This document shows, piece after piece, positions 48,890 to 64,000 of a stretch of DNA of 64,000 nt. Each line of letters starts with the position of its first letter. Within the stretch, counting starts at the first letter, position 1. Source of the DNA: an uncultured delta proteobacterium (lineage in GTDB: Bacteria; Myxococcota_A; UBA9160; SMWR01); contig CAWHTE010000001.1 in assembly GCA_963832165.1 (NCBI GenBank), positions 83,855 through 147,854 of the forward strand. The letters run 5' to 3'. The notes beneath the pieces are model-generated. The model ran no database searches. It was given only the letters and a program-made list of their open reading frames with translations, and was not told where the DNA came from. Position numbers and translations under genes: made by a program.

Positions 48890-50629
48890 CTACGCGAGTC
48901 CGAGCTCCGCGAGCACGGCCATCTGCGCCAGGTCGCCGTCGATCACGAGGCGCCGCGTGTTGAAGGCCTCCGCGCCCGAGAGATCTCCGTTCGCGATCTG
49001 CAGATAGCTCGCCGCATCGGCACGGATCGTCACCGTGGCATCGGCGCGCTCGGCGGGCGCGGTGTCGATCGTGAGCGCGCCGTCGCGCACCGCGAGGATC
49101 CACGTGCCGCCGTGCTCTCCCGTGAGCGCGTACTGCACCACGAGCTCGACGCCCGCGGCCTTCGCGGGATCGAAGCGGCTCGCCATCGCGGCGAACAGCT
49201 GCTCGACGGAGTCGACGCGGCGGGCCGCGAGCCGCGCGGCGCGCGCCCGCTCGCGCGCGAGCACGTCGGCTTCCATCGCCGCGATCGACTCGGCGAGGAT
49301 CGCCGCGATCTGGTCCGCGCACGCGCGATCGATCGTGAGCGGAGGCGCGAGTCCCACCACCTCCGTCCCCATCGCGCGCACGTAGAGCCCGCGCTGCCAG
49401 GCTTCCGCTTCCACGCGTGCACAGGCCGAGTGCGGCTTCGAGAAGCCGCGCCGCGTCGCCTTGTCGGCGACGAGCTCGATGCCGATCATGAGCCCCACGC
49501 CGCGGATATCGCCCACGGAATCGAAGCCGCCGAGCATCTCGCGCAAGCGCTCGATCAGATAGGCGCCCACGTCGGCTGCGTTCTCGGCCAGGCGTTCGCG
49601 TTCGAGGATCTCGATGTTGGCGAGGGCCGCGGCGCAGCACGTGGGATGGCCCATGTACGTGAAGCCGTGGCTGATCGGCATCTGGTTCGGCAGCTTCGCG
49701 CTGATCGTCTGGTAGATCTCCTCGGAGACCACCGACGCGCCGAGCGGCAGATAGCCGCTCGTGATCCCCTTCGCGAGCGTCACGACGTCGGGCCGCACGC
49801 GATAGCGCTCGAAGCCGAACATCGTTCCCGTGCGCCCGAAGCCCGTCACGACCTCGTCGAGGATCAACAGGATCCCGTGGCGGTCGCAGATCTCGCGGAT
49901 GCGCTCGAAGTAGTCGTCGGGCGGGGGGATGATGCCGCCTGCGCCGTACACGGGCTCGGCGATGAACGCCGCGATCGTCTCGGCGCCGTCGCGCTCGATC
50001 AGGCGCTCGAGCTCGTCGGCGCACGCGAGCCGGCAGCTCGGATAGGTCTTGCCGAGCTCGCACTTGAAGCAGTAGGGTGCCGCGACGTGCGCGAAGCCGG
50101 GCGCCTCGGGTCCGAAGTTCCAGCGCAGCGGCATGATGCCCGTGGCGGTCATCGTCGCGATCGTGAGTCCGTGATAGGCATGGTGGCGAGCCACGATCGT
50201 CGTGCGCCGCTCCTCGCCGCGCAGCGCCCAGTAGAGGCGCACGAGCTTGATCGACGTCTCGTTGGCCTCCGACCCGCCCGACGAGAACATCACGTGCGAG
50301 AGGCCGTACTCGCGCGGGAACATCGAGCACAGCTTCTCGGCGAGCTCGATCGCGCGCGGGTGGGACTGGCCGTGGAAGGTCGTGAAGTACTCGAGCGTCT
50401 CCATCTGCTCGCGCACGGCCGCGATGATCTCGGGGCGCCCGTGCCCGACCGCCACGCACCAGAGCCCGGAGAACCCGTCGATCAGGCGGTGTCCGCGATC
50501 GTCGGTGATCCACCAGCCGTCGCCTTCGACGATCACGCGCGCGCCGTCGCTCTCCATCTCGCGTGGCGGCGTGAGCGGGTGGATCAGATGGGCGGCGTCG
50601 CGCTCGGCGAGCGGGGTCCGCCCGGGCAT
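48890..50629 (-). CDS. Class III (omega) aminotransferase fused to a C-terminal SCP2 sterol-carrier-like domain
   Basis: The aminotransferase part carries SGGSEANE, LILDEVVTGFGRTG and the PLP lysine in TLAKGITSGY. The last approximately 108 aa (48890 to about 49220) read FDPAKAAGVELVVQYALTGEHGGTWILAVRDGALTI...NGDLSGAEAFNTRRLVIDGDLAQMAVL, which matches the SCP2 pattern. Confidence 0.85.
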   Translation of the reverse strand: MPGRTPLAERDAAHLIHPLTPPREMESDGARVIVEGDGWWITDDRGHRLIDGFSGLWCVAVGHGRPEIIAAVREQMETLEYFTTFHGQSHPRAIELAEKLCSMFPREYGLSHVMFSSGGSEANETSIKLVRLYWALRGEERRTTIVARHHAYHGLTIATMTATGIMPLRWNFGPEAPGFAHVAAPYCFKCELGKTYPSCRLACADELERLIERDGAETIAAFIAEPVYGAGGIIPPPDDYFERIREICDRHGILLILDEVVTGFGRTGTMFGFERYRVRPDVVTLAKGITSGYLPLGASVVSEEIYQTISAKLPNQMPISHGFTYMGHPTCCAAALANIEILERERLAENAADVGAYLIERLREMLGGFDSVGDIRGVGLMIGIELVADKATRRGFSKPHSACARVEAEAWQRGLYVRAMGTEVVGLAPPLTIDRACADQIAAILAESIAAMEADVLARERARAARLAARRVDSVEQLFAAMASRFDPAKAAGVELVVQYALTGEHGGTWILAVRDGALTIDTAPAERADATVTIRADAASYLQIANGDLSGAEAFNTRRLVIDGDLAQMAVLAELGLA

Positions 50630-50632
50630 CGG

Positions 50633-51448
50633 CTAGCGCGCACCGCGCTTCGCGCGCGCGTCGATCGTGTTGCGCTTCACCGCGCGCCGCATGAACTCGG
50701 GTGCGACCGCCTGGATCACGTAGGCGGGCGAGATCCCGCCCGGGTAGGTGATCTCGTGCTTGCCCTTCGCAAGCGCATCCATCGTCGCGTCGACGAGCGC
50801 TTCCACCTCCACCATGCCGCGCTTCGCGGCCGGCGGCATGCGCGACAGCGCCTCCTCGTCGAAGAACGGCGTGCGGATCACGCCCGGGCACACCGTGAGC
50901 ACGTGCACGCCCGCGTCCTCGACCTCGAGCGAGAGCGAGGCGGCCAGTCCGACCATCGCGAACTTCGAGGCCGCGTAGGCCGACTCCTCGGGAGGTGCGA
51001 TCTTGCCCGCGACCGACGCGACGAACACGAGCCAGCCGCGCCGCTGCTCCACCATCGCAGGCAAGAGCGCCTTCGTGAAGTAGAGCGTTCCGAAGTAGTT
51101 CACGCGCATCACGCGTTCCATGTCCTCGACCGACCACTCGAGGAAGGTGCGGTGATGTCCGTAGCCCGCATTGTTCACGAGCATGTCGATGCCGCCCCAG
51201 ACCTCGCGCGCGCGCGCCGCCGTGGCCGCGACCTCCGCCGCGCTGGACACGTCGCACGGCAGCACCACGGCCTCGCTTCCGCCGGAGCGGATCTCGGCCG
51301 CGAGCTTCTCGAGCTCCTCCGCGCGGCGCGCCACGAGCGCCACGCGCGCGCCCTCGCGCGCGAGCCGCAGCGCGAGCGTGCGGCCGATGCCGCTCGAGGC
51401 GCCCGTCACGAGCGCGCGCAGCCCCTGGTAGGAGCGCAGCCGCGTCAT
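50633..51448 (-). CDS. SDR-family oxidoreductase
   Basis: The start is ATG 51448 (ATGA overlap with the TetR stop at 51445). Motifs TGASSGIGR, NNAG and YAASKFA are present. Confidence 0.85.
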   Translation of the reverse strand: MTRLRSYQGLRALVTGASSGIGRTLALRLAREGARVALVARRAEELEKLAAEIRSGGSEAVVLPCDVSSAAEVAATAARAREVWGGIDMLVNNAGYGHHRTFLEWSVEDMERVMRVNYFGTLYFTKALLPAMVEQRRGWLVFVASVAGKIAPPEESAYAASKFAMVGLAASLSLEVEDAGVHVLTVCPGVIRTPFFDEEALSRMPPAAKRGMVEVEALVDATMDALAKGKHEITYPGGISPAYVIQAVAPEFMRRAVKRNTIDARAKRGAR

Positions 51449-52086
51449 CGCGCGTTCTCGACGAGCGCGAGGATCACCGACTGCAGGTGCTGCTTGGTGC
51501 GCTCGCGGATGCGCGGGTCGGAGAGGTCCTTTCCGAACAGCTTCTTGTAGTGCGCAGTCGACAGGATGTGGTGGTGCAAGATTCCCTCCACGGTGATCAG
51601 CAGCAGGCCCAGATCGTGTTTGGGGGCGCCGAGCCTCTGGCCCGAGAGCGACTCGTCGATGAACTGCACCCAGCTCTGCTCCTTCAGCGAGACGCCCTTC
51701 GCGAGGCCTTCGCCGAGTGTTGCGCGTACCGAGAGCGCCACCCAGCCGCGCTTCTCGAGAAAGAAATCGAACAGCTCCTCGACGACCTTCTCGACCGTCG
51801 TCGCGAGATCGCCCTGGCCCGCGACCACCGCGCCGACGCGCTTGAGGATCTCGTCGTCCCAGCGCGAGAGCACCGCCTGGTACAGGCCCGGCTTCGAGCC
51901 GAAGTGGTGCTGGATCGTGAACGGGCGCACGCCGCATGCGCGCGAGAGCTCGCGCACCGACACGCCGCGGTAGCCGCGGTTCGCGAACAGGCGCTCGGCG
52001 CGGTCGAGGATCCGGGTGCGCGTGCGCTCGGCCTCCTCCTGCGAGCGCCGGCCGGCCGGGCGCGACTGGACTTTCTTATTGGCCAT
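51445..52086 (-). CDS. TetR/AcrR-family transcriptional regulator
   Basis: The start is ATG 52086 (MANKKVQSRPAG...). The HTH region is RILDRAERLFANRGYRGVSVRELSRACGVRPFTIQHHF. No obvious SD is present, so the start is uncertain. Confidence 0.8.
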   Translation of the reverse strand: MANKKVQSRPAGRRSQEEAERTRTRILDRAERLFANRGYRGVSVRELSRACGVRPFTIQHHFGSKPGLYQAVLSRWDDEILKRVGAVVAGQGDLATTVEKVVEELFDFFLEKRGWVALSVRATLGEGLAKGVSLKEQSWVQFIDESLSGQRLGAPKHDLGLLLITVEGILHHHILSTAHYKKLFGKDLSDPRIRERTKQHLQSVILALVENAR

Positions 52087-52119
52087 GTGTACAGTAAAAC
52101 ACCGCGCGCGCTCCGAGTC

Positions 52120-52131
52120 AACGCGCGCGTT
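52120..52131. promoter_or_regulatory. Perfect 12-bp palindrome in the TetR/dehydrogenase divergent intergenic region (operator candidate)
   Basis: AACGCGCGCGTT lies at 52120-52131, midway between ATG 52086 (minus strand) and ATG 52170 (plus strand). TGTACA at 52088-52093 is a second short palindrome. Confidence 0.3.
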
Positions 52132-52169
52132 CCCCGAAACCCCCCGGAATCCAGGCATCTGGAGGTCGC

Positions 52170-53417
52170 ATGCGCGCGCTCGTGATCGGCAGCGAGATGG
52201 CGCGGCTCATCGTCACCCGGTTGCTCGCCGCGCTCTCGCCGCGCGCGTTCGTGGGCCCGACCTCGACGCTGCGGCTGTGCGAAATCCCCGAGCCCACGCT
52301 GCCGGCACCCGATTGGGCGGTCGCGCGCACGCGCCTGTGCGGTCTGTGCGGCAGCGACTACAAGCAGGTGTTCATGAACGGGGCGTTCGACAGCCCGATG
52401 ACCGCGATGATCTCGTGGCCGCAGGTGCTCGGGCACGAAGTGGTCGGCGTGATCGACGAGGTCGGACCCGCAGCGACGCGCCGCCGGATCGGCGAGCGCG
52501 TGGTGTTGAACCCGTGGCTGTCGTGCGAGACGCGCGGCCTGCCGCTGTGCGACTGGTGCGAGGAGGGCGACCTCGCGCAGTGCCTGAACTTCGCGCGCGG
52601 CAGCGCGGCACCCGGCATCCACACCGGCAACAGCTCGACCGCGACGGGCGGATTCGCGCAGCGCGTGCCCGCGCACGAATCGCAGTGGATCCCGATTCCC
52701 GACGAGATCAGCGACGACGCGGCCGTGCTCGCCGACCCGTTCTCGGTCTCGCTGCACGCGATCCTGCGCACGCCGCCGCCGCCGGGCGGCACCGCGCTCG
52801 TGTACGGTGCCGGCACGCTGGGTCTGTTCGCGATCGCGATCCTGCGCCTGCTCCACCCGCACGTACGCGTGCTCGCGGTGGCGCGCTTCGATCACCAGGC
52901 GCAGCTCGCGGAGAAGTTCGGTGCGGATCGCGTGTTTTCTTACCGGCCGGCGCTCGGGATCATCGAGGCCGTCGCGGAGGCGTGCGGCGCCGAGATCGCG
53001 CGCCCCTGGAGAGGGCTCCCGATGCTTCTCGGCGGTGCCGACGTGGTGTACGACACCGTGTCGTCGCCCGAGACTCTCGAGGTCGGACTCCGGATCGCGA
53101 ACATCCGCGGGAGCATCGTGGCGCTCGGCGTCGAGCCGCCGCGCCGCTTCGAGTGGACGCCGCTCTACTTCAAGGAGATCTCGATCGTCGGATCGAACGG
53201 CTTCGGGATCGAGGAGTACGACGGGCGCCGGCAACACGCGATCGAGTGGTACTTCGAGTTCCTGCGCACGAAGCAGATCGATCTGACTCCGATCATCACG
53301 CACCGCTTCCCGCTCGCGGGCTACCGCGATGCCTTCATGACCTGTTATTCGCAAGGCGACAACGGCGCCGTGAAGGTGCTGTTCGACCGCTTCACCGACG
53401 AGGAGACTTTGCGATGA
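52170..53417 (+). CDS. Zinc-dependent alcohol dehydrogenase family protein (long form)
   Basis: Zinc ligands lie in LCGLCGSDYK and GHEVVGV. A structural Zn Cys cluster lies in CETRGLPLCDWCEEGDLAQC. The NAD fold motif is VYGAGTLGLF. Its stop overlaps the next start (ATGA at 53414-53417). Confidence 0.85.
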   Translation: MRALVIGSEMARLIVTRLLAALSPRAFVGPTSTLRLCEIPEPTLPAPDWAVARTRLCGLCGSDYKQVFMNGAFDSPMTAMISWPQVLGHEVVGVIDEVGPAATRRRIGERVVLNPWLSCETRGLPLCDWCEEGDLAQCLNFARGSAAPGIHTGNSSTATGGFAQRVPAHESQWIPIPDEISDDAAVLADPFSVSLHAILRTPPPPGGTALVYGAGTLGLFAIAILRLLHPHVRVLAVARFDHQAQLAEKFGADRVFSYRPALGIIEAVAEACGAEIARPWRGLPMLLGGADVVYDTVSSPETLEVGLRIANIRGSIVALGVEPPRRFEWTPLYFKEISIVGSNGFGIEEYDGRRQHAIEWYFEFLRTKQIDLTPIITHRFPLAGYRDAFMTCYSQGDNGAVKVLFDRFTDEETLR

Positions 53418-56400
53418 GCCGCGTGCTCTTGGGAATCGATCTCGGAGGCGGCAGCGTCCACTGCACGCTGCTGGACGCCGACACGGGCGCGCGCTTCGAG
53501 GCCGCGCTCGCGATCACGAGCCAGTCGGCGGAAGGCACGAGCGGCCTCGGCTACGAGATCGCCACCGATGAGCTCTGGGCGCGCGTGGGCGAGACCACGC
53601 GCGCGGTGCTCGCTTGCGCGGGCGCCACGGGCGATGCCGTCGCGGGCGTGTCGGTGACAGCGATGCGCTTCACGTCGGTGGTGCTCGACGCGGCCGGCGA
53701 GGTGCTGTTCGCGGTGCCCAACCGCGATGCGCGCTCGGTCGGCGAGAGCATGCGGATCGCGGCCGAGCGCGGCCAGGCGGTGCTCGCGACCAGCGGCATG
53801 TGGCCGCTGCCGATCCACGCTGCGCCGCGCCTGTCGTGGCTGCGCAGCGCGCGGCCTGACGTGTTCGGGCGCGCGGTTACGCTGCTCTCGCTCTCGGACT
53901 GGCTGAACTTCCGGCTCTGCGGACGGCGGATCACCGACGAGACACAGGCGGGCTGCACGGGCCTGTTCGATCTGCGCAAACGCGAGTGGAACGCGGAGCT
54001 GATCGACGCGTTCGGGCTGCCGCGCGCGATCTTCCCCGAGGTGCGACCGTCGGGCGAGCGGATCGGCGAGCTCGACGCGCGCGCCGCGCGCGAGCTCGGG
54101 CTCGCACCCGGCACGCCCGTGGCGCTCGGCGGCGGCGACACGCGCTGCGGACTGCTCGGCGCGGGCGCGATCGCCGACGGCGACGTGGGCCTGATTGCGG
54201 GAACCACCGCTCCGCTCGAGCTCGTGACCGACGAGCCCGTGATCGACGGCGAGGGACGGCTGCGCAGCGGGCTTCACGCGGTGCCGGGGCGTTATGTGCT
54301 CGAGGCGAACGTGGGACCGGTCGGCGAGGGCCTGGCCTGGCTCGCGCGCCTGCTCCACCCGGACGACGCGCGGCCCGACGACCGCTTTGCGGCCGAGGCT
54401 TCGACCGCGGCGATCGGCTCGGCCGCGATGCTCGCGAACGTGGGCGCACTCGTGGCGAACGATCGCCAGCCCGCTTTCCCCGTCGGCATGTACTCGCTCT
54501 CCCACATGACGGGCACGCAGGGGCGCAGTGCGCGCGCGAGCCTCGCGCGCTCCGCGCTCGAGGGAGTGGCGTGTGCGGTGCGCGCGAACCTCGAGCAGCT
54601 CACGCGCGTCACGGGGCGCGATCTGCGCCGCATTCATCTCGCGGGCGGGCTCTCGCGCAGCGCGCTGTTCGCGCGGATCCTCGCGGGCATCACGCGCGCC
54701 GAGGTGGTGCGCGCGGCGGCGCCCGAGGCGACCGGCCTCGGCGCTGCGCTGTGCGCGGGCATCGGCGCGGGCGTGTTCGCGGACGCGCTCGACGCGGTGA
54801 GCCACGGCGTGCGCGCAGCGGAGACCTCCGCGCCGCAGGCGGCCGAGGCCGACGCGTACGAGCGGCTCTACGAGAGCTGGAGCGAGCTGCGCGACGCGGC
54901 CGAGCAGACCACGGCGCCGATCGCGATGCGCCACACGGTTCCGGCCGCGCTCGCCGCCTCGCAGCGCAACGGGCGGCGCGCCAAGGCCGCGCATCGGCCC
55001 AAGGCGCTCGTCACCGCGGCGTTCGACGACGCGTCGATCGAGCGGCTGCGCGGCTTCGCCGACGTCGAATACGCGAGCTTCCGCGACCGCATGCAGCTGC
55101 TCACGGGCGCGAGCCTGGTCTCGGCGCTCGCCGACTGCGACGTGCTGGTCACCGAGGTCGACGTCGTCGACGCGAAGGCGCTCGAAAAGCTTCCGAACCT
55201 GCGCGTGGTGGCGGCCTGCCGCGGCGACGCCGTGAACGTGGACGTGGCCGCGTGCAGCGCGTTCGGGATCCCGGTGCTGTTCGCGCCGGGCCGCAACGCC
55301 GACGCGGTGGCCGACCTCACCGTCGCGTTCCTGCTCAACCTCGCGCGGCGGCTGCCCGCGGCCACGAAGTTCCTCGCCGACCCGGCGGTGACGGCCGGCA
55401 ATCTCGCGGCGATGGGCAAGGCGTTCCGGGGCCTGCAGGGCTACGAGCTCTGGTCGAAGACGGTGGGTCTGGTCGGACTCGGCGCGGTCGGGCGCGGCGT
55501 GGCGCGCCGGCTCTCGGGCTTCGGCGTGCGCCTGCTGGTCGCCGATCCGTACGTCTCCGCGGAGGAGGCCGCGCTCGCGGGCGCCGAGAAGGTCGAGCAG
55601 GGCGAGCTCCTGCGCACGAGCGACTTCGTGAGCCTGCACGCGGCCGTCACCGACGCGACGCGCGGGCTGCTCGGCCCCGCGCAGTTCGCCGCGATGAAGC
55701 CCGGCGCGTATCTGATCAACACCGCACGCGCGGCGCTGGTCGACGAGGCCGCGCTGCTCGCGGCGCTCGACAGCGGGCACCTCGCGGGCGCTGCGCTCGA
55801 CACGTTCGCGGTCGAGCCGCCCGGCGCCGATCACCCGCTCGTGCGCCACGGCAGCGTGATCCACACGCCGCACATCGGCGGCAACACGAACGAGGTCGCT
55901 GCGCACCAGGGCCGGAGTATCTCCGATGCGCTCGAGCAGCTCGTGCGCGGTGAGGCGCCGCGCTGTCTGCTCAATCCCGAGGCGCTCGCGGGCTTCAGCT
56001 GGACGGGTTCGCGCCGCGTGCCGACGGCCGACGAGCTCACCGCGCTCGCCAATCGCGCGGGCCCGGCCGTCACCGACCTGCAGCGCGACGCGCAGGCCGA
56101 GGCCCAGGAGGAGAAGCTCGAGCCGAGCGCCGCGCCCGCGGAGACGGTCGCGGCGATGAAGCGGATCCTCGAGACGTTCACGGCCGCGATGGCGCAGGAC
56201 GAGCGCGTGCACGCGTTCAGCGCCGACAAGGACGTCGCGCTCTACTTCGTGCTGCCCGACATCGGCCTCGACCTCCACATCGCGCTGCGCGAGGGACGGG
56301 TCTCGGGCGGGCTCGGCAAGCCCGAGGGTGGCTCCGTGGTCCAGCTGCGCATGCGCGCGGCGATCCTGGACGGGATGTTCACGGGCAAGGTGAACGCGAT

Positions 56401-57229
56401 GGAAGCCGCGATGCAGGGCGAGGTCGCGTTCACGGGCGACGCCGGCAAGGCGATGGCGATCCAGCAGCTCCAGGGCGACATGCGGCGGCTCTACAGCGCC
56501 GCGCGCGAAGAGGTGGGCGATCCGGGCGACCTCGCCGCGATTCCGCAGCCGGGCGCGGCGCCGGGCGCCGCCGCTGCGGCGAAGCCCGTCGGCTCCGACG
56601 ACGTCCGCGTCGAGATCGTCTCGATCACCCAGGAGCTCTACGAGAACCAGGTGATCACCGCGACGGGCGGCAACGTGTGCGCGCGGATCCCGGGCAAGCC
56701 GGACGAGGTCTGGATCACGCCGAGCCAGCTGTTCAAGGGCGATCTGCGGCCCGAGGTACTCGTGCGGATCGACCTCGATGGCAAGTCGCTCGACGAGGGC
56801 TCGCGCTCGGCGTCGTCCGAGTGGAGCATGCACACGCAGATCCTCAAGAAGAAGCCCGAGGCGAAGGCCGTGATCCACGCCCACGCGCCGTTCGCGACCA
56901 CGCTCGCGAACACGGGGCTGCCGTTCCTGCCGATCAGCACCGAGGCCGCCTTCTTCGGCGACATCCCGCGCGTGCCGTTCATCATGCCCGGCACCGACGC
57001 GCTCGCGGAGGCGGTCTCCGAAGCGATGAAGGACAGCTGGGCCGTGTTCATGGTGAACCACGGGCTGGTCGTGTGCGGGCGCAGCCTGCGCCGCGCGGCC
57101 GACATGGTGGAGATCGTCGAGCGCTCGGCACAGCTGATCCTGGGCTGCTATGCGGTGGGCAAGGAGCCGCCGGTGCTGCCCGAGAAGACGGTCGCGATGC
57201 TGCGCAAGATGGGCGATCTGGTCGCGTAG
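53414..57229 (+). CDS. 1271-aa four-domain fusion: FGGY carbohydrate kinase, D-isomer 2-hydroxyacid dehydrogenase, SCP2-like domain, class II aldolase/adducin domain
   Basis: The ORF is uninterrupted in one frame. The FGGY part (53414 to about 54910) carries GIDLGGGS, ALGGGDTRCG and HLAGGLSRSA. The 2-HADH part (about 55003-55990) carries GLVGLGAVGRGVA, NTARAALVDE and TPHIGGNT. The SCP2 part (about 56140-56520) carries VALYFVLPDIGLDLHIAL...GKVNAMEAAMQGEVAFTGDAGKAM. The aldolase II part (about 56605-57229) carries SSEWSMH, VIHAHAP and MVNHGLVVCG. Confidence 0.85.
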   Translation: MSRVLLGIDLGGGSVHCTLLDADTGARFEAALAITSQSAEGTSGLGYEIATDELWARVGETTRAVLACAGATGDAVAGVSVTAMRFTSVVLDAAGEVLFAVPNRDARSVGESMRIAAERGQAVLATSGMWPLPIHAAPRLSWLRSARPDVFGRAVTLLSLSDWLNFRLCGRRITDETQAGCTGLFDLRKREWNAELIDAFGLPRAIFPEVRPSGERIGELDARAARELGLAPGTPVALGGGDTRCGLLGAGAIADGDVGLIAGTTAPLELVTDEPVIDGEGRLRSGLHAVPGRYVLEANVGPVGEGLAWLARLLHPDDARPDDRFAAEASTAAIGSAAMLANVGALVANDRQPAFPVGMYSLSHMTGTQGRSARASLARSALEGVACAVRANLEQLTRVTGRDLRRIHLAGGLSRSALFARILAGITRAEVVRAAAPEATGLGAALCAGIGAGVFADALDAVSHGVRAAETSAPQAAEADAYERLYESWSELRDAAEQTTAPIAMRHTVPAALAASQRNGRRAKAAHRPKALVTAAFDDASIERLRGFADVEYASFRDRMQLLTGASLVSALADCDVLVTEVDVVDAKALEKLPNLRVVAACRGDAVNVDVAACSAFGIPVLFAPGRNADAVADLTVAFLLNLARRLPAATKFLADPAVTAGNLAAMGKAFRGLQGYELWSKTVGLVGLGAVGRGVARRLSGFGVRLLVADPYVSAEEAALAGAEKVEQGELLRTSDFVSLHAAVTDATRGLLGPAQFAAMKPGAYLINTARAALVDEAALLAALDSGHLAGAALDTFAVEPPGADHPLVRHGSVIHTPHIGGNTNEVAAHQGRSISDALEQLVRGEAPRCLLNPEALAGFSWTGSRRVPTADELTALANRAGPAVTDLQRDAQAEAQEEKLEPSAAPAETVAAMKRILETFTAAMAQDERVHAFSADKDVALYFVLPDIGLDLHIALREGRVSGGLGKPEGGSVVQLRMRAAILDGMFTGKVNAMEAAMQGEVAFTGDAGKAMAIQQLQGDMRRLYSAAREEVGDPGDLAAIPQPGAAPGAAAAAKPVGSDDVRVEIVSITQELYENQVITATGGNVCARIPGKPDEVWITPSQLFKGDLRPEVLVRIDLDGKSLDEGSRSASSEWSMHTQILKKKPEAKAVIHAHAPFATTLANTGLPFLPISTEAAFFGDIPRVPFIMPGTDALAEAVSEAMKDSWAVFMVNHGLVVCGRSLRRAADMVEIVERSAQLILGCYAVGKEPPVLPEKTVAMLRKMGDLVA

Positions 57230-57230
57230 T

Positions 57231-57851
57231 CTACGCCGAGTCGACTCTCGCCCGGAGCGCCGTCCGTTCCGCCGCGGTGACCACGCGCGGCGCGCACACC
57301 AGCGCGCCGGTCGCGTCGAAGAACGGCCCGCGGCGGTGATCGCCGCGCAGCCGCGCGGCGAGAGCGATCCAGAAGAGCCGGAGGATCACCGACGCAGGAA
57401 AGCGGTCGTGCGCATCCAGCTGCTCGCGATGCTTCGCGAAGCGGGCGTGACCGCGGGTGCGGATCGGTCCGAGCACCTGCTCGCGCGCGCTCTCGGGCGC
57501 ATCGATGCAGCTGTGGATCAGGCCCACGAACGGCACCTGCCGCGAGGCGAGCGTATTGCCGATCGGGGTGCGGCAGCACGCCGCGTACCAGCGCACGAGG
57601 CCGCCGGGTGCGAGGCGCATGCAGGCCAGGCGATCGGCGCCCGCGCTGATCTCGAGATGGGCGGGAGACATCTGGAAGATCTCGGTGCCGCCGTGTTCGT
57701 CGAGCGTCTCCTTCGCGGCGTCGAGGAAGTGCGCGAACGCCTGGCAGTCGTCGCAGTAGCAGTAGACGCGGTTCCCGAGCTCGCCCGAGACGCCGCGCGC
57801 GCTCCCGCGCAGCGCTCCGCAGCTGCATCGGATCGGGAGATCGGCGGGCAT
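57231..57851 (-). CDS. Cys-rich GFA/CENP-V-like (DUF6151-like) zinc-binding protein
   Basis: The Cys pattern is CSCGALRG...VYCYCDDCQAF...YAACCRTPIG. The protein is 206 aa. Confidence 0.6.
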   Translation of the reverse strand: MPADLPIRCSCGALRGSARGVSGELGNRVYCYCDDCQAFAHFLDAAKETLDEHGGTEIFQMSPAHLEISAGADRLACMRLAPGGLVRWYAACCRTPIGNTLASRQVPFVGLIHSCIDAPESAREQVLGPIRTRGHARFAKHREQLDAHDRFPASVILRLFWIALAARLRGDHRRGPFFDATGALVCAPRVVTAAERTALRARVDSA

Positions 57852-57869
57852 CGGACGTGCGCCGTACGC

Positions 57870-59102
57870 CTAGCGCGCCGGCGCGAGCTCCCAGCGCAGG
57901 GGCACGCGCTTGATGCCGCCCACGAACGACGACCGCACGCGGTCGACCGGCCCCGCGAGCTCGGCGCGCACGAGTCGCGTGCGCAGCTCCTCGAACACGG
58001 CGCGGATCTCGAGCCGCGCGAGATGGGCACCCAGGCACACGTGCTCGCCGCGCCCGAAGCCGACATGGTCGTTGGGCTGGCGGTCGATCCGGAACACGTC
58101 GCCGTCGGGGAAGATCTGCTCGTCGCGGTTCGCCGACGGGTAGAACAGGCACAGCGACTGTCCGGCGCGGATCGCCTGGCCGCGCAGCGAGAAATCCTCG
58201 GTCGCGGTGCGGCAGAACTGGATCACAGGCGTCGTCCAGCGCACGATCTCCTCGATCGCGGGTGTCACGAGCGCCTCGTTCTCCTGGAGCCGCTTCCACT
58301 CGCCCGGATTCTCGAGGAACGCGAGCATGCCACCCGTCATCGCGTTGCGCGTCGTCTCGTTGCCGGCCACCACGAGCAGGAAGAGGTAGGACAGCAGCTC
58401 GACGGGGGGCAGCGCGCGCCCGTCCACAGAGGCGTTGGCCACCTCGCTCACGATGTCGTCGTTCGGCTGGCTCCGCCGGCGCTCGGCGAGCTCGTGGAAG
58501 TAGGCGAACACCTCGTGGCGCGCGCCGTCGATCGTCTTCTGCGCGTCGCCATCGCGCTGAAACTCCGGGTCTTCGGGCGCGATGACCTCGTTGGTCCAGC
58601 GGAACAAGAGCGGCCAGTCCTCGTCGGGCAGGCCCAGCATCAGCGCGATCACCGCGATCGTGATCGGCGCGGACACGTCCTTCACGAAGTCGATCTGCTC
58701 GCGCTGCGCAGCGGCGTCGAGCACGTCGCGCGTGATCCGGCGCACCTTCGACTCCCAGCCCTGCGCCGCGCGCGGCGTGAAGCGCTTGCTCGCGACCTGG
58801 CGGTACTTCGCGTGGTCGGGCGGGTCCATGTTGAGCAGATGGCGCGTCTCGCCCTCGGGCGGCGGCGGGACCTTGTTGTCGAACACCGCGAGGCGCGGCG
58901 CATTCTGGAGCGTCTTGGGGTGCTTGCCCAGCCAGACGACATCGGCGTGCTTGGTGACGACCCAGAACGGATCGAAGTTCGGCCGCTCGTACCACAACAC
59001 CGGCGCGTGCTGGCGCAGGTATGCCCACTCGCGATGCGGATAGCCGTGCTGCTCGTAGTGCTCGGGGTTCATCACGTCGATCGTCGCGAGATCGAAGCTC
59101 AT
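57870..59102 (-). CDS. Cytochrome P450 (second)
   Basis: The start is ATG 59102 (ATGA overlap with the upstream stop at 59099). The heme loop is FGRGEHVCLGAHLA, the ExxR motif is EEIVRW, and the I-helix is VAGNETT. Confidence 0.9.
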   Translation of the reverse strand: MSFDLATIDVMNPEHYEQHGYPHREWAYLRQHAPVLWYERPNFDPFWVVTKHADVVWLGKHPKTLQNAPRLAVFDNKVPPPPEGETRHLLNMDPPDHAKYRQVASKRFTPRAAQGWESKVRRITRDVLDAAAQREQIDFVKDVSAPITIAVIALMLGLPDEDWPLLFRWTNEVIAPEDPEFQRDGDAQKTIDGARHEVFAYFHELAERRRSQPNDDIVSEVANASVDGRALPPVELLSYLFLLVVAGNETTRNAMTGGMLAFLENPGEWKRLQENEALVTPAIEEIVRWTTPVIQFCRTATEDFSLRGQAIRAGQSLCLFYPSANRDEQIFPDGDVFRIDRQPNDHVGFGRGEHVCLGAHLARLEIRAVFEELRTRLVRAELAGPVDRVRSSFVGGIKRVPLRWELAPAR

Positions 59103-60397
59103 CGCGAGCCTCCGTTCGCCTTCGTCGCCACCTTCGGGAACGCGCGCGCGATCGCGAGCAGCCACTCCACGATGCGCACCACGTGCAGCGAGAGCACGGG
59201 CTTGCCGCTCGTGCACAGCGCAACCGACAGCGCGCGATCGGGGTCGGCCCACGAGAAGATGTTCGAGAATCCCAGGTGTCCGAACGCGCTCTCGCTGTCG
59301 GGCCCGAACAGCGAGAAGTTGGGGCTGCCGAGCATGAAGCCGAGCCCGTAGCGGAGCGGGAAGCCGAGCGTGAAGTCGACCTCCCACCACGCGGACTCGC
59401 CTGTGGCGTGGCGGATCGTCGCGGGGTCGAGCACGCGCACGCCGTTCTGCTCGCCGCCGTCGAGCAGGCACTGGTAGAACGCACACAGCTCGCTCGCGGT
59501 GGTGACCACGTTCGCGGACGGGATGATCCCGGTGAGGTAGCGCGGATCGTTCGCGAGCTCGATCACGTGCTCGATGTCGGCCCCGAGCGCGTTGCGCAGG
59601 ATCGCCGAGCCGGGCCACGGCACGGGCGGACCCGTCACCGCGTCGCGCGCAACGAGCGGCAGATCCTCCTTGCCCACGCCGTAGCGCATCCAGCGGTAGC
59701 CGAGCGGCTCGATCAGCTCGCGCTCGAGCACGGTGCGGATGTCGGACCCCGTGACCCGCCGCACCACCTCGGCGAGCACGAAGCCGCCCGAGACGGCGTG
59801 ATAGGCGAGCACGCGCCCGGGCCGCGACCGCAGCTCCGCGTCGCACATGATCTCGACCACCTTCTCGGGCTGACCGAGCAGATCGAGGTCCATCGACTCG
59901 GGCGGCAGATTCGGGATGCCGGCCTTGTGCGCGAGCAGGTGGCGCAACGTGATGCGCTGCTTGCCGTGCTTGGCGAACTCGGGGATGAAATCGCACACGC
60001 GGTCTTCGAGGTGCAGCACGCGCTTCTCGTCGAGCTTGTGGATCACCATCGCCGTGATCGCCTTGCTCGCCGAGAAGATGTCGAACGGGGTCTCGGTGCT
60101 GACCGAGAGCTTCGGCGCGTCGGGCGGGTCCTGCGGCGCGTTACCGCGCGCGTGGCCGATCGCGCGGTTGAGCACCACGACGCCCTGGCGCCGCACGCAC
60201 AGCGACAGCGCGGGGTGTACGCCCGTGGCGTAGATCGCCTGCGTCGCGTCCCACACGCGCTCGACTTCGGCGGCCGCCACGTCCGAGCCGCCGGGATCCT
60301 CGGGGCCCACGTCGAGGTTTTCTTCGAGGTCGCGCGGGAGGCGACACCGCTTCGTGCCGGGCAGGTTCAGCTGACCGATCCAGTGGAGGGGGTCCAT
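59099..60397 (-). CDS. Beta-lactamase-fold serine hydrolase
   Basis: The S-x-x-K motif is FSASKAIT. The preferred start is ATG 60397 (MDPLHW), because the longer ORF start at 60439 would overlap the SWIM gene. Confidence 0.8.
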   Translation of the reverse strand: MDPLHWIGQLNLPGTKRCRLPRDLEENLDVGPEDPGGSDVAAAEVERVWDATQAIYATGVHPALSLCVRRQGVVVLNRAIGHARGNAPQDPPDAPKLSVSTETPFDIFSASKAITAMVIHKLDEKRVLHLEDRVCDFIPEFAKHGKQRITLRHLLAHKAGIPNLPPESMDLDLLGQPEKVVEIMCDAELRSRPGRVLAYHAVSGGFVLAEVVRRVTGSDIRTVLERELIEPLGYRWMRYGVGKEDLPLVARDAVTGPPVPWPGSAILRNALGADIEHVIELANDPRYLTGIIPSANVVTTASELCAFYQCLLDGGEQNGVRVLDPATIRHATGESAWWEVDFTLGFPLRYGLGFMLGSPNFSLFGPDSESAFGHLGFSNIFSWADPDRALSVALCTSGKPVLSLHVVRIVEWLLAIARAFPKVATKANGGSR

Positions 60398-60422
60398 GGG
60401 GGGATCTCTTTCTGTGGGTTGA

Positions 60423-61748
60423 CTACGACTTTTCATCATCCTCGTTCACGGCGCCCGCGCCCAGGTAGACGTCGAGACCCGTGATCGAAGCGTTGCGGTA
60501 GGTGCGCGCCATCGCGGCTTCACAGTTCGATTGGCCGCGCCAGAACGGGAAGCCGCCGAGCCGCGCCACGATCGCGCCGGGCTTGCGCGGGATGCGCACC
60601 TCGATCGCCTCGTCGCGGCTGCGCACGGCGCCGCCCCAGAACACCTCGGGATCCTCCGGGAGCGGCTCGTCGGGAATCACGCGCTCGGGCGGCGGCTCGA
60701 TCACGGCGATGTTCGGCGCCACGAACGGCTCGCCCTCGTCCCCTTCGAGCAGCTCGCCGTCGGCTCCGTACGTGGGCTCGGAAGACGATGGCGGCATCGG
60801 CGCCCGCGGGATCGCCGCGGGTCCGAGCGCCGCGAGCAGCTCGCTGCGCTCCATGCCGCGAAGCTGGAAGATCAGGAACGGATCGCGGTCGAACTCCTCG
60901 CCGAGCAGGTAGTAGACGGCCGCCACGTGCTTGCATGGGTTCGCGTTGTCGGGGCACGAGCACGCGGCCTTGAGATCGCCGCTCGCGTTGGGGAAGAGCG
61001 ACAGGCGCTGCTCTTCGAACACGCTCTCGATGCTTTCGGGGATGGTCCCCATGCCGAGTTCGACGGCGATGTCGGGGCGCTGCGCGAGCGCGCGCGTGAG
61101 CTTCTTCCAATCGGTGCTCGACAGCATCGAGAAGTGCATGCGCACGAGATACGGTGCGTCGCGCGAGCCCTGAACGTGCGCGGTGACGAAGCCCTTGCCG
61201 ATCTCGATGTCGACGATGTGGCCCTGGCGCGCGTAGTTGCGGCCGCGTCCGAGCCGACGCCCGACCGCGAACCGCTCGAGCACTTCCACCCAGCGCCGCG
61301 CCCACCAGTTCTCACCGGTGCGCCCGCGCCGCGGGCGTCCGCGTTGATTGTTGTTGCGCTGCGGTCGCCCTTGTCCGCGCCCGCGCCGGTTCCGGCCGCC
61401 GCTCTTGCCGCGCTGCTGGCCCTGCCAGCCGCCGCCGCCATTCCCGCCGCGCTGCGCACCATCGCCGTCGTCGCCGTCGTCGTGGAACACCTCGAGGTCG
61501 CGGAACAGCTCGGGCGGCCTCGCCGCGACGTCTGCGCCGCTCGCGCCCTCCACGCCCGGCGCGGCCGTCGGCGCGGCGTTCCAGGATCCGTTTCCGCCCG
61601 CGCCGCCGTTCTGCGCGTTCGGATCGACCGGGCCGCTCGGACCGCCGGGACCGCGCCCGCCGCGCCGGCGCCGCGGCCGTCGCCGCCGGCGGCGGGGTTC
61701 TCCGCCGCCTCCGCCGACTTGTCCGCCGCCCGGGCCTTCTTCGCTCAT
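60423..61748 (-). CDS. SWIM zinc-finger protein with approximately 150-aa N-terminal Arg/Gly-rich low-complexity region
   Basis: The start is ATG 61748, 2 nt after the helicase TAG. The SWIM CxC...CxH motif is CSCPDNANPCKHVAAV. The conserved part begins at WWARRWVEVLERF...RGRNYARQG. Confidence 0.8.
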   Translation of the reverse strand: MSEEGPGGGQVGGGGGEPRRRRRRPRRRRGGRGPGGPSGPVDPNAQNGGAGGNGSWNAAPTAAPGVEGASGADVAARPPELFRDLEVFHDDGDDGDGAQRGGNGGGGWQGQQRGKSGGRNRRGRGQGRPQRNNNQRGRPRRGRTGENWWARRWVEVLERFAVGRRLGRGRNYARQGHIVDIEIGKGFVTAHVQGSRDAPYLVRMHFSMLSSTDWKKLTRALAQRPDIAVELGMGTIPESIESVFEEQRLSLFPNASGDLKAACSCPDNANPCKHVAAVYYLLGEEFDRDPFLIFQLRGMERSELLAALGPAAIPRAPMPPSSSEPTYGADGELLEGDEGEPFVAPNIAVIEPPPERVIPDEPLPEDPEVFWGGAVRSRDEAIEVRIPRKPGAIVARLGGFPFWRGQSNCEAAMARTYRNASITGLDVYLGAGAVNEDDEKS

Positions 61749-61750
61749 CG

Positions 61751-64000
61751 CTAGTCCCGCACCGCGTCCTTGCGCAGCGAGAACACCTCGTGCAGCTCCG
61801 CGTTGGAGAGCTCGGTGATCCACTGCTCGCCGGTGCCCACGATGTCCTCGGCGATCGATCTGCTTGCGCTCGATCATCTCGTCGATGCGCTCTTCGAGCG
61901 TTCCGACGCACACGAACTTGTGTACCTGCACGTTGCGCGTCTGGCCGATGCGGAACGCGCGGTCGGTGGCCTGGTTCTCGACGGCGGGGTTCCACCAGCG
62001 ATCGAAGTGGAACACGTGGTTGGCGCCGGTCAGGTTGAGACCGAGGCCGCCCGCCTTGAGCGAGAGCACGAACACGGGCGGCGCATCCGAGCCGCCGGCC
62101 TGGAAGCGCTCGACCATCTGATCGCGTCGCTTCTTGGGCGTGCCGCCGTGCAGGAAGTACACCTCGCGACCGAGCTCGTCCTGCAGATGCTCCTGGAGCA
62201 GCTTGCCCATCTCGGCGAACTGCGTGAACACGAGCGTGCGATCGCCCGCGAGCGTGACCTCCTCGAGCATCTCGGAGAGGCGCGTGAGCTTGCCCGATCG
62301 CTTGGGCAGCTCGGAGCCGTCGCCGAGGAAGTGCGCCGGGTGGTTGCACACCTGCTTGAGCTTCACGAGCGTCGCGAGGATCACGCCGCGCCGCTCGATG
62401 CCCTCGGCGTCCTCGAGCTTGCGCTCCGCCTCCTTCACGACCTGCTCGTAGAGCGTGCCCTGCTCGCCCGTGAGCGTGCAGAACACCTTCATCTCGAGCT
62501 TGTCGGGCAGGTCGGAGATGATCGCGCGGTCGGTCTTCAGGCGGCGCATGATGAACGGCTTGGTGATGTGCGCGAGCTTCTCGACCGCGTCGGGATCGCG
62601 GTGGGCCTGGATCGGCACCAGGAAGTCGCGGCGGAACTGCTCCTGGCTGCCGAGGAAGTCGGGGTTCAGGAAGTCCATGATCGACCACAGGTCGCCCACG
62701 TGGTTCTCGACCGGCGTGCCCGTGAGCGCCGCGCGGTAGTCGGCCATCACGGCGCGCACTGCCATCGACTGCTTCGTGTCCGGGTTCTTGATGTTCTGCG
62801 CCTCGTCGAGGATCACGCCCGCCCAGCGCATCGAGCGCAGGTCTTCGAGATCGCGCTGGACGAGCGCATAGCTCGTGAGCACGAGCGCGTGGTCCTGCGC
62901 ATCGGAGACGAATTCGTAGCCCTTCTTCCGCTGCGGGCCGTGGTGGATCATCGTGCGCAGGTCCGGCGTGAAGCGCGCGGCCTCGCGCTCCCAGTTCGCG
63001 AGCACCGAGGTGGGGCACACGAGCAGCACGGGGCGGTCCTCGCCGTTGTTCCGCTCGCGCTCGATCAGCGCGAGCGTCTGGATCGTCTTGCCGAGACCCA
63101 TGTCGTCGGCGAGACAGGCGCCGAGCTCCCAGCGGCGCAGGAACTCGAGCCAGGCGAAGCCCTTCTCCTGATAGGGCCGCAGCGCGCCGATGAAACCGGG
63201 CGGTGTCGCGAGCGGCTCGATCGCGTTCTTGTCCGAGAGCCGCTCGAGCAGCGCGCCGAGCCAGCCCGTGGCCCGCACGCCCTCGAAGTGGATGCCCGCC
63301 GACGAGTCGGCGGCGCCGAGCGCCATGCGCACGATCTCGCGCGCGGTCACCTCGCCGCCGCGGCGGTTCTTGTAGAACTCGAGCGCTGCGTGGATCTCCT
63401 CGACGCTCGTCTGCACCCAGTGGCCGCGCACGCGCTGGAGCGGCTCCTTGAGGCGCGCGAGGTCCTCGAGGTCGCGGCCCGAGAGCGGGTTGCCCGCGAG
63501 ACACACCTCCCAGTCGAACGCGACCGTTTCGTCGAGACGCGGCTCGTAGTCGAGCTCGGTCTGCTCGGGCGTGCGTACGCGCGCGCGCACCGAGAGCCGA
63601 TGGCGCGTGCTGCCGCCGGTCCACCACTCGGGCAGGATCGTGCCGAAGCCCGCCTGCTCGAGCGCGGGCGCGGTCTGGGTCAGGAACTCGTGCGCGCCGC
63701 GCGCGTCGAGCGAATAACCCGACGGTTTGCGCGAGCGCAGGCTCATCTCGATCTTCGGGCACACCCCGGCCGCCTGCGCGAGCGAGAGCAGGAGCGTCTG
63801 GTGCACGTCGCTGCCGGAGCGCTGCAGCGCGGCCGCCTTCCGGCCGCGCAGGATCCACGCGTCGGCGGTCGGCACGAGCAGCGACGGGTCGTCGGTGCCC
63901 TGGAGCAGGTAGCGCACGTACCAGCGGCGCTGACCCGGGCCGCATCGCCTCGCGCGTGCGCGCCTTGTTGTTGCGCTTGCCGTACGGTCGCTTGCCCCGC
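61751..64000 (-). pseudogene. SNF2-family (RapA/HepA-like) helicase, N-terminus beyond the window edge; last approximately 35 codons in another frame as assembled
   Basis: The helicase motifs are LADDMGLGKT, ILDEAQNIKN, TGTPVENH and LKAGGLGLNLTGANHVFHFDRWWNPAVENQATDRAFRIGQ. After ...IDEMIERKQ the conserved tail AEDIVGTGEQWITELSNAELHEVFSLRKDAVRD-TAG (stop at 61751-61753) is in a different frame. The switch is near 61852-61860 (ATCGATCG). As assembled, the ORF reads through into the SWIM gene. Confidence 0.8.

Follow-up and report, generated by a model that had tools for sequence, protein, structure and literature searches.

What might a bacterial cell gain from joining a carbohydrate kinase, a 2-hydroxyacid dehydrogenase, a lipid-binding fold and an aldolase in one polypeptide? 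The question is raised by a gene at positions 53414-57229 on the plus strand of a 64,000-nucleotide (nt) stretch of DNA, hereafter the window, from the genome of an uncultured delta proteobacterium (Myxococcota_A, UBA9160; contig CAWHTE010000001.1). The gene encodes a protein of 1271 amino acids (aa) with an FGGY kinase domain, a dehydrogenase domain related to 3-phosphoglycerate dehydrogenase (PHGDH), an SCP2 domain and a class II aldolase domain. We find that the gene is genuine and belongs to a family with many members, and we propose that such fusions may remove the terminal linear polyol head from a hydrophobic molecule, a mechanism in which we place about as much belief as doubt.

Coding potential of the fusion gene

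The translation of the fusion gene runs through 1271 codons without an internal stop and then terminates. Its ATG overlaps the stop codon of an upstream gene for a Zn-dependent alcohol dehydrogenase (Zn-ADH) in the sequence ATGA (53414-53417) and is preceded by a Shine-Dalgarno-like GAGGAG. Because the GC content of the window is about 71% and many long spurious open reading frames (ORFs) are present, the codon-position composition of the fusion ORF was checked. The GC fractions at the first, second and third codon positions (GC1/GC2/GC3) are 0.74/0.52/0.94, and GC3 stays between 0.88 and 0.97 in each 300-nt segment of the ORF, including all three interdomain linkers; in the same frame 5' of 53414, GC3 is 0.53, indicating non-coding sequence. 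This upstream part of the frame is open for 466 further codons (52016-53413, plus strand) and has a non-coding GC pattern, as does an antisense ORF of 1238 aa (53345-57061, minus strand); both are open only on account of the high GC content and would mislead gene callers that rely on ORF length. A public collection contains identical 1271-aa and 415-aa products, called on a contig of 874,829 nt.

The possibility that the long ORF is an artefact, be it an assembly join, a set of frameshifted separate genes or a chance frame in GC-rich DNA, draws on the abundance of spurious ORFs in the window, the 1238-aa antisense ORF being an example. Against it stand the frame-specific coding signal that continues through all linkers, the motifs GPAVSDLQ and GDPGDL conserved within the linkers, and the presence of all four domains in a single frame in more than 60 of 80 metagenome loci that come from different studies and phyla. 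We therefore reject this explanation as next to impossible: the fusion gene is real, not an assembly artefact or a chimera. A first-pass annotation, made from the letters of the window alone, had described a single polypeptide with four enzyme or binding domains and had considered that separate genes might turn out to meet at the linkers; the uninterrupted ORF, together with Pfam matches that all exceed their thresholds, bears out the description, and the single frame in so many independent loci removes the worry.

Domains and conserved residues

The Pfam models FGGY_N, FGGY_C, 2-Hacid_dh, 2-Hacid_dh_C, SCP2 and Aldolase_II all match the protein above their gathering cut-offs. Conservation of individual residues was judged in an alignment of 46 diverse homologues. 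The kinase domain (53426-54766, plus strand; residues 5-451) consists of FGGY_N (PF00370, residues 5-249, E-value 1e-40, 140.3 bits against a cut-off of 28.8) and FGGY_C (PF02782, residues 260-451, 5.8e-21, 75.6 bits against a cut-off of 27). Its closest match in the PDB is LsrK (5ya0), with 176 bits against 118 for the next entry, and its best NCBIfam model is likewise that of LsrK (NF008187), with 231.5 bits, a score that does not reach the equivalog cut-off of 528. Residues D9, G11 and D242 are invariant; by analogy with GlpK and XylB, we take these to be the phosphate-1 DxG and the catalytic Asp of the GGxDT motif. G263, T264/T265 and G411/G412 are invariant or nearly so, and the mean identity of the domain is 48%.

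The D-isomer-specific 2-hydroxyacid dehydrogenase domain (55019-55963, plus strand) is covered by 2-Hacid_dh (residues 536-850) and 2-Hacid_dh_C (residues 638-822, 8.5e-52); the pair PF00389 and PF02826 scores 175.5 and 51.7 bits, both above cut-off. The top PDB matches are human and bacterial 3-phosphoglycerate dehydrogenases, McyI and glyoxylate reductases, and the 3-phosphoglycerate dehydrogenase equivalog TIGR01327 gives 209.3 bits, short of its cut-off of 454. The glycines of the GxGxxG motif (G685, G688 and G690), D711 and the Arg-Glu-His triad (R772, E801 and H820) are invariant, and the domain shows 66% mean identity and zero indels, with a length of 330 aa in 46 of the 46 sequences.

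The class II metal-dependent aldolase domain (56612-57139, plus strand; residues 1067-1242) matches Aldolase_II (PF00596) with an E-value of 2.5e-45 and 155.1 bits, above the cut-off. Its best PDB match is DrdA (6BTD), followed by FucA, so that it is of the FucA/DrdA type; the L-fuculose-phosphate aldolase equivalog NF005302 gives 105.8 bits and its cut-off of 264 is not reached. E1136, which aligns with the catalytic Glu of DrdA (Glu76) and FucA, the metal ligands H1155, H1157 and H1216, and the phosphate-binding residues N1087, T1102, S1134 and S1135 are invariant, and mean identity reaches 70%.

The SCP2 domain (56159-56515, plus strand; residues ~916-1034) gives the weakest of the domain matches (PF02036, residues 945-1019, 1.2e-7, 32.4 bits against a cut-off of 21.3), and an SCP2 annotation is precomputed for nearly all homologues. 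An AlphaFold (AF2) model of residues 880-1058, built with a 21-homologue alignment, has a pLDDT of 83 and a pTM of 0.77, and a Foldseek search of the PDB with this model returned 45 matches at E-values of 1e-3 or below, all of them SCP2-fold domains; the best were the alkylsulfatases Pisa1 and SdsA1, UbiJ-SCP2, SCP2 and the SCP2L domain of MFE-2. The agreement of the Pfam match with the modelled fold confirms that the middle segment is an SCP2 domain, a point on which the original four-domain reading could have failed. The domain is 117-121 aa long in all homologues and shows 53% mean identity, with D986, G987, G1002, F1006, G1008, D1009, A1013 and M1014 invariant. As judged from the alignment, each of the four domains is under selection and has kept its predicted catalytic or binding residues.

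The linkers lie at residues ~496-530, 861-915 and 1035-1064, close to where the first-pass annotation had put them (about 54910-55003, 55990-56140 and 56520-56605); its description of them as Pro/Ala-rich applies in part only. Mean identity drops to 26% in linker 1, and the length of linker 2 among homologues is anywhere between 55 and 247 aa.

Distribution of the family and architectural variants

A search of 5.8 billion proteins shows that the architecture recurs in more than 120 protein clusters that have the same Pfam set and 38-86% identity over ~100% of the length; in a scan of metagenomes, 504 relatives were found and 80 loci were kept, in which the four segments were mapped separately. 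Among genomes, matches come from Myxococcota metagenome-assembled genomes (MAGs; 84% and 54% identity), Halioglobus (one complete genome), Haliea, Spongiibacteraceae and Novosphingobium. The public labels of these homologues are generic or misleading, such as 'AI-2 kinase' (AI-2, autoinducer 2) or 'phosphoglycerate dehydrogenase-like'.

The kinase and the dehydrogenase are fused in every relative recovered, and the SCP2 domain was seen only together with the aldolase, never without it. One variant is an 888-aa kinase-dehydrogenase protein that ends at GPAV(S/T)DLQ (loci L070-L075, L078, L081, L083 and L084); in L062, L066, L068, L073, L057 and L065, a kinase-dehydrogenase gene adjoins a separate class II aldolase gene, and SCP2 is absent. 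Conversely, when the SCP2-aldolase half was searched against 1.84 billion representatives, 93 proteins were found at E-values of 1e-30 or below, with about 20 full-length representatives, and proteins of 370-480 aa span only SCP2 and aldolase (P0242, P0246, P0249-P0251, P0255, P0256 and P0266), some of which may be fragments. These split variants identify kinase-dehydrogenase and SCP2-aldolase as the evolutionary units of the fusion. Longer forms of 1430-1480 aa have an insertion in linker 2; in P0013, P0014, P0044 and P0109 (1428-1476 aa), and in loci L014 and L060, an extra 150-200 residues lie between the dehydrogenase and SCP2.

A predicted route from polyol lipid to aldehyde

Homology and gene context, from which all steps are drawn, suggest the overall conversion R-CHOH-CHOH-CHOH-CH2OH to dihydroxyacetone phosphate (DHAP) and R-CHO. 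The LsrK-like kinase would phosphorylate the terminal CH2OH, the PHGDH-like dehydrogenase would oxidise the adjacent CHOH to a ketone, yielding a lipid analogue of a ketose 1-phosphate, and the DrdA/FucA-like aldolase would cut the C3-C4 bond to release DHAP and a lipid aldehyde. The order of the domains from the N-terminus to the C-terminus is that of the proposed reactions; alternatively, the dehydrogenase may act before the kinase. The SCP2 domain, which invariably precedes the aldolase directly and is flexibly tethered, would hold the hydrophobic tail of the substrate or of the aldehyde product. The aldehyde would pass to a redox enzyme encoded upstream, namely the Zn-ADH in the window, a cytochrome P450 in many aerobic relatives or an aldehyde ferredoxin oxidoreductase (AFOR) in anaerobe-type relatives, and the resulting acid would enter CoA-dependent side-chain degradation. 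In the window, an aminotransferase-SCP2 protein, a short-chain dehydrogenase (SDR) and a P450 could release the free polyol from forms of the lipid that carry an amino group or another cap.

The proposed chemistry follows from the activities of the nearest solved relatives. LsrK acts on the terminal CH2OH of a deoxy-pentose derivative, and PHGDH oxidises a CHOH beside CH2-O-phosphate. The structure 6BTD is that of DrdA, a 5-deoxyribulose-1-phosphate aldolase that yields DHAP and acetaldehyde and employs Glu76 as the base (PMC6079011). The kinase, dehydrogenase and aldolase logic read from the sequence by the first-pass annotation is thus backed by characterised enzymes.

One of the closest known systems is the DHAP shunt (DrdK-DrdI-DrdA; MtnK/MtnP-MtnA-Ald2), in which a class II aldolase cleaves a 5-substituted 5-deoxy-pentulose 1-phosphate into DHAP and an aldehyde, and in which DrdA, the closest solved relative of our aldolase domain, shares the catalytic Glu and the three His residues. 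Whereas the shunt combines an MtnK-type kinase with an MtnA-type isomerase that acts on an aldose, the fusion combines an FGGY kinase with an NAD-dependent dehydrogenase, implying a polyol (alditol) substrate; furthermore, the fusion joins all activities to SCP2, and the shunt enzymes have no lipid-binding domain. Fucose and rhamnose catabolism (FucI-FucK-FucA; RhaA-RhaB-RhaD) similarly employ an FGGY kinase followed by a class II ketose-1-phosphate aldolase that yields DHAP and an aldehyde, which a dedicated partner oxidises or reduces, but the fusion lacks an isomerase and would obtain the keto group from its 2-hydroxyacid dehydrogenase domain, its kinase resembles LsrK and not FucK or RhaB, and SCP2 is added. 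As for LsrK itself, the AI-2 kinase, no other NCBIfam model or PDB entry matches the kinase domain better, and public annotations give its name to many homologues; however, the equivalog cut-off is missed by a wide margin, and an LsrR/SorC-type regulator occurs only in a subset of distant relatives. A true LsrK/AI-2 system was rejected given the 231 against 528 bits and the lack of LsrACDB, LsrF and LsrG genes nearby, and the 'AI-2 kinase' label is almost certainly an over-annotation.

With regard to the lipid-binding fold, MFE-2/HSD17B4, SCPx, the alkylsulfatases SdsA1 and Pisa1, and UbiJ offer precedents of an SCP2-fold domain attached to enzymes whose target is the polar end of a lipid; their partners, in contrast, are beta-oxidation enzymes, a thiolase, a sulfatase and ubiquinone biosynthesis, and none is engaged in sugar-phosphate-type chemistry. 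Homologues of steroid and bile-acid side-chain degradation enzymes (CoA ligase, acyl-CoA dehydrogenase (ACAD), MaoC hydratase, Ltp2-ChsH2 aldolase and KshA) flank the fusion in many aerobic carriers, but that pathway starts from an alkyl or carboxyl side chain and involves neither a kinase nor a class II aldolase. Steroid polyol side chains (bile alcohols) were set aside as the substrate by a chemical argument: sterol side chains branch at C25, which precludes a linear ketose 1-phosphate. Catabolism of alkylglycerols (ether lipids) via alkyl-DHAP was also set aside, as we found no role in it for a retro-aldol enzyme.

Judged by the absence of an isomerase, the different kinase subfamily, the failure to reach any equivalog cut-off and the presence of SCP2, the fusion, for all its likeness to the DHAP shunt and the fucose and rhamnose pathways, belongs to none of them. 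Our literature searches found no description of a kinase-dehydrogenase-SCP2-aldolase architecture, and neither did searches of curated families, in line with the initial impression that it had gone undescribed. The chemistry is familiar, and the fusion, its lipid adaptation and the probable pathway are undescribed.

Genomic context in the window

The window carries what we denote the type C context, which is shared with L001 (84% identity), L015 and L095 (86%): genes for an EamA transporter, (DUF3703), a P450, an aminotransferase-SCP2 protein, an SDR and a TetR regulator on one strand, and the Zn-ADH and fusion genes divergent on the opposite strand. The Zn-ADH (52170-53417, plus strand; a member of the medium-chain dehydrogenase/reductase (MDR) superfamily of 415 aa with ADH_N and ADH_zinc_N domains) is translationally coupled to the fusion gene; its nearest NCBIfam models are threonine, idonate, inosose and galactitol-1-phosphate dehydrogenases, and orthologues with 49-84% identity adjoin the fusion in L001, L015 and L095 and lie within 3-7 kb of it in L003, L079 and L051. 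The 83-nt divergent intergenic region between the TetR and Zn-ADH genes (52087-52169) contains a GC-rich inverted repeat, CGCGCGCG-N11-CGCGCGCG, at 52103-52129, flanked by AAC/GTT (52099-52131); it was flagged by a terminator scan, but is more likely a putative operator for TetR. The regulator itself (51445-52086, minus strand; ~213 aa; TetR_N 5.7e-14), for which the start at 52086 was derived from an in-frame MANKKV, is encoded divergently to the Zn-ADH/fusion operon, with conserved synteny in L001 and L095. Its stop overlaps the start of the SDR gene (50633-51448, minus strand; 271 aa; adh_short 3.2e-58; syntenic in L001, L015 and L095).

Next on the minus strand is a class-III, omega-type aminotransferase with a C-terminal SCP2 domain (48890-50629; 579 aa; Aminotran_3 3.9e-103; SCP2 8.6e-12, residues 486-574), which fits omega-aminotransferase subfamilies of NCBIfam and recurs as the same fusion in L001 and L095; we found no description of this architecture either. 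Recent duplication as the source of its SCP2 domain and that of the four-domain fusion was rejected, as BLASTP detected no significant similarity between the two; this lack of similarity indicates that two enzymes of one locus independently acquired a lipid-binding fold. The cytochrome P450 (47527-48774; 415 aa; p450 5.7e-29), in the same minus-strand string and syntenic in L001 and L095, has CYP107/CYP125-type hydroxylases as PDB relatives, with a slight lean to CYP125/CYP142-type sterol side-chain hydroxylases. The conserved block ends with an EamA/DMT-family transporter (46191-47069, minus strand; 292 aa; EamA 8.3e-28), which has a syntenic counterpart with 87% identity in L001 and also occurs in L095.

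Downstream of the fusion, the minus strand (57231-63917) encodes a DUF6151/GFA-like protein, a beta-lactamase-family serine hydrolase and a 1164-aa SNF2-family helicase with DUF3670 and a SWIM zinc finger. Homologues of the beta-lactamase-family gene and of an ORF at 57870-59996 lie 3' of the fusion in L001, where DUF6151 is a 74-aa fragment; these genes (DUF6151, beta-lactamase-family and ORF 57870-59996) do not recur beyond this clade in the comparison, which left the helicase aside. No tRNA, tmRNA or Rfam family was matched across the 64-kb window.

Genomic context in relatives

The ORFs of 95 loci, with flanks of ~10 kb, were clustered and the recurrent families annotated. The type A context, found in aerobic Gammaproteobacteria and Myxococcota with ~55% identity, is a string of ChsH2-OB, an Ltp-type thiolase, TetR, P450, the fusion, (VOC) and acyl-CoA ligase, with a KshA-like Rieske protein and Amidohydro_2 divergent and with ACADs, MaoC and family-III CoA-transferases nearby. 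No type A neighbour reached a steroid-specific equivalog cut-off in an NCBIfam scan; the scores were 67-76 bits for the KshA-like gene with SdmA and 206 bits for the ligase with CasG. Orthology between the window P450 and those of type A loci is weak (34-38% identity), and we treat the correspondence as functional analogy. The type B context, Chloroflexi/Anaerolineae-like with 43-49% identity, contains GntR, AFOR, an ornithine/acetylornithine-type aminotransferase, an M28 peptidase, an HpnA-family SDR and the fusion; in another order the fusion is followed by the aminotransferase, M28, HpnA and Zn-ADH.

The gene directly upstream varies. The Zn-ADH gene overlaps the fusion start in the window, L001, L015 and L095, the P450 gene does so in L010 (10001-10004), L021, L022 and L023, and the AFOR gene in L096 (4076-4079), being directly upstream in L060 and L070 as well; genes for aldehyde dehydrogenases (ALDH) are nearby in L006, L062, L071 and L086. 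That three unrelated redox families occupy the upstream position suggests that they are interchangeable partners for one aldehyde or alcohol step. We favour the view that each of them may dispose of the aldehyde product, although a role in preparing the substrate is also conceivable. An acyl-CoA ligase gene lies directly downstream of the fusion in L010-L012, L016, L017, L022 and L024. In L033 (6833-22058), from an organism with 45% GC, one strand encodes IspH with a long C-terminal extension, a LolA-like protein, the fusion, a BNR/Ycf48-like protein, an MMPL/HAE3 RND transporter, DUF1302, an epimerase and an M28 peptidase, a set that looks like an envelope lipid-trafficking system.

These contexts point to a lipophilic substrate, in view of the SCP2 fold, the second SCP2 fusion, the ligase and side-chain genes nearby and the L033 transport set, and to an aldehyde product, in view of the AFOR, P450 and Zn-ADH genes upstream and the ALDH genes nearby. 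The lipid-linked substrate suggested by the first-pass annotation is therefore backed by the aminotransferase-SCP2, P450, Ltp-type thiolase and ChsH2-OB, ligase, ACAD, KshA-like and L033 genes; the lipid role it implied has this support but may not be universal, given the SCP2-less kinase-dehydrogenase variants in housekeeping contexts. Its portrayal of the protein as a self-contained machine went too far, since the pathway seems to include other neighbouring genes and a redox enzyme that is translationally coupled to the fusion.

Weighing the alternatives

Several observations speak against the removal of a polyol head from a lipid. Carboxylates are the normal substrates of D-2-hydroxyacid dehydrogenases, a family for which activity on a polyol phosphate would be out of the ordinary. 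No residue of the aldolase domain clearly corresponds to FucA Tyr113: the alignment is ambiguous between T1176, E1177 or an Ile, and the family has S-T-E at 1175-1177. The model of the combined SCP2-aldolase domains has a pTM of 0.63, with a linker pLDDT below 50 and no confident inter-domain geometry. The contexts are heterogeneous: the Halioglobus locus L002 is flanked only by a glutathione S-transferase gene and a capsule cluster, L013 is surrounded by sugar genes, L050, L063 and L080 include a SorC/LsrR-type sugar-phosphate regulator, and L014, whose neighbours are housekeeping genes, is a counter-example to the lipid contexts. The SCP2-less relatives are likewise found among housekeeping genes, as in the L073 string of aconitase, isocitrate dehydrogenase, RlmN, iPGM, Macro, kinase-dehydrogenase and aldolase, so that the core chemistry needs no lipid; these forms suggest that the enzymatic core arose on a soluble substrate and was adapted later. 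Finally, every step of the mechanism is a prediction from homology and gene context.

Some of these points would be accommodated if the polyol that undergoes the same reactions were instead small and soluble, say a 5-deoxypentitol, a 6-deoxyhexitol or a different sugar alcohol whose hydrophobic end is short, and SCP2 were only a structural or oligomerisation module or a lid. The separate kinase-dehydrogenase and aldolase in housekeeping contexts, the soluble substrate of DrdA, the aldolase's nearest relative, the sugar-type neighbours and SorC-type regulators just mentioned, and the ability of AFOR and ALDH to oxidise a small aldehyde equally well all agree with such a substrate. Nevertheless, we consider it unlikely: SCP2 is strongly conserved in both length and sequence, as expected of more than a spacer, a second enzyme of the locus independently bears this domain, and the recurrent neighbours are P450s, long-chain/steroid-type CoA ligases, Ltp/ChsH2, ACADs and lipid-transport genes, not sugar transporters. 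A different lipid, namely a non-hopanoid amino-polyol such as a phytosphingosine-type base, a fumonisin-like aminopolyol or another long-chain polyol or aminopolyol, would give the aminotransferase the task of making a ketone or aldehyde that the fusion then phosphorylates and cleaves. Class-III aminotransferases do occur in two independent context types, that of the window and the AFOR-aminotransferase-M28-HpnA type; the carriers Novosphingobium and Myxococcota are among the groups that make sphingolipids, and genes of GT21, the ceramide-glucosyltransferase family, adjoin the aminotransferase-HpnA-like module in L099 and L100. Yet a transaminated 2-amino-1,3,4-triol is already a 2-ketose, which would render superfluous a dehydrogenase that is highly conserved and always fused to the kinase, and most loci have no aminotransferase, so that we regard this substrate as quite improbable.

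The reactions could also run in the biosynthetic direction, with the kinase and dehydrogenase making DHAP from glycerol, the aldolase condensing DHAP with an SCP2-bound lipid aldehyde into a polyol or aminopolyol lipid, and the aminotransferase, SDR, P450 and EamA exporter tailoring and exporting the product. AFOR can in principle reduce acids to aldehydes, and the window resembles a small biosynthetic cluster in its set of TetR, P450, aminotransferase, SDR and EamA exporter; moreover, the aldol equilibrium favours condensation (PMC6079011). We nonetheless give synthesis only a small chance: there would be little reason for a dedicated fused supply of DHAP, which is abundant in central metabolism, the kinase resembles LsrK and not glycerol kinase, and the neighbours are of catabolic type, including acyl-CoA ligase, ACADs, thiolase-like aldolases, ALDH and TetR, GntR, SorC and MalT regulators.

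A hopanoid as the candidate substrate

If a polyol lipid is indeed cleaved, the substrate that tentatively fits best, among those considered, is a bacteriohopanepolyol, bacteriohopanetetrol (BHT), which would be cleaved into DHAP and a C32 hopanoid aldehyde; we hold this identity to be less likely than not. The side chain of BHT derives from the ribose of 5'-deoxyadenosine (HpnH, HpnG), and BHT can accordingly be regarded, in formal terms, as a 5-deoxyribitol substituted at position 5, a lipid version of the alditol that corresponds to the DrdA substrate. The side chain of the C32 acid, -CH(CH3)CH2CH2COOH, is identical to the C5 side chain of C24 bile acids, and this identity would explain the steroid-type side-chain genes of type A loci. 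The chemical Rohmer degradation of BHT yields the same C32 skeleton, and the functions of hpnA and of the enzyme that interconverts ribosylhopane and BHT are still unknown (PMC12583986).

The SDRs that adjoin the fusion in L044, L061 and L090 score 420-431 bits on the HpnA model TIGR03466 (cut-off 367.65), as does an HpnA-family gene located 2.6 kb downstream of the fusion in L079; in these four loci the gene is accompanied by an ornithine/acetylornithine-type aminotransferase. In L033, L043 and L048, scores on the same model are 70-90 bits, below the cut-off. Weighing against a hopanoid are the abundance of the HpnA-like family in Anaerolineae/Chloroflexi, with 75-89% identity across many MAGs, and the occurrence of the highly conserved module of aminotransferase, (M28 peptidase) and HpnA-like SDR (L099, 7443-10999; L100, 7406-10990; L061, 6462-9990) both with and without the fusion, beside GT21 glycosyltransferases; the module could be an amino-lipid pathway. 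For these two reasons we downgraded the hint provided by HpnA. Moreover, no shc, hpnH or hpnG gene was seen in the annotated ~10-kb flanks of the loci examined, and the window has no HpnA-like gene. The hopanoid-type substrate that the first-pass annotation had offered as an example therefore retains the argument from chemistry and the HpnA-family genes near the fusion in four loci, the latter diminished by the occurrence of that family elsewhere.

It is conceivable, although doubtful, that hopanoid catabolism in bacteria begins with the fusion, which would convert BHT to DHAP and bishomohopan-32-al as an enzymatic parallel to the Rohmer degradation. Together with the neighbouring aminotransferase, P450 and reductases, the fusion might also handle aminotriol and composite bacteriohopanepolyols. 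C32 hopanoic acid and C32 hopanol, compounds that are prominent in recent sediments, would subsequently form from the C32 aldehyde by oxidation or reduction. Our literature search found no route for microbial hopanoid side-chain degradation and nothing relevant on hopanoids in combination with SCP2.

Implications

If the proposed mechanism is correct, the kinase and aldolase logic of deoxy-sugar catabolism would have been adapted to lipids by enzyme fusion and the addition of a lipid-holding domain, providing a compact means to harvest three carbons as DHAP from the polar tail of a membrane lipid and to open the remainder to beta-oxidation. Should the substrate be a hopanoid, the finding would bear on the alteration of biomarkers before burial, would offer a biological origin for C32 geolipids and would supply a marker gene for hopanoid turnover. 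Even if another polyol lipid is cleaved, the family, with over 500 metagenomic relatives among bacteria of sea, soil and sediment, needs relabelling and study, and the complete genomes of Halioglobus carriers, such as NZ_CP159826, make it a tractable entry into an undescribed lipid-catabolic pathway.

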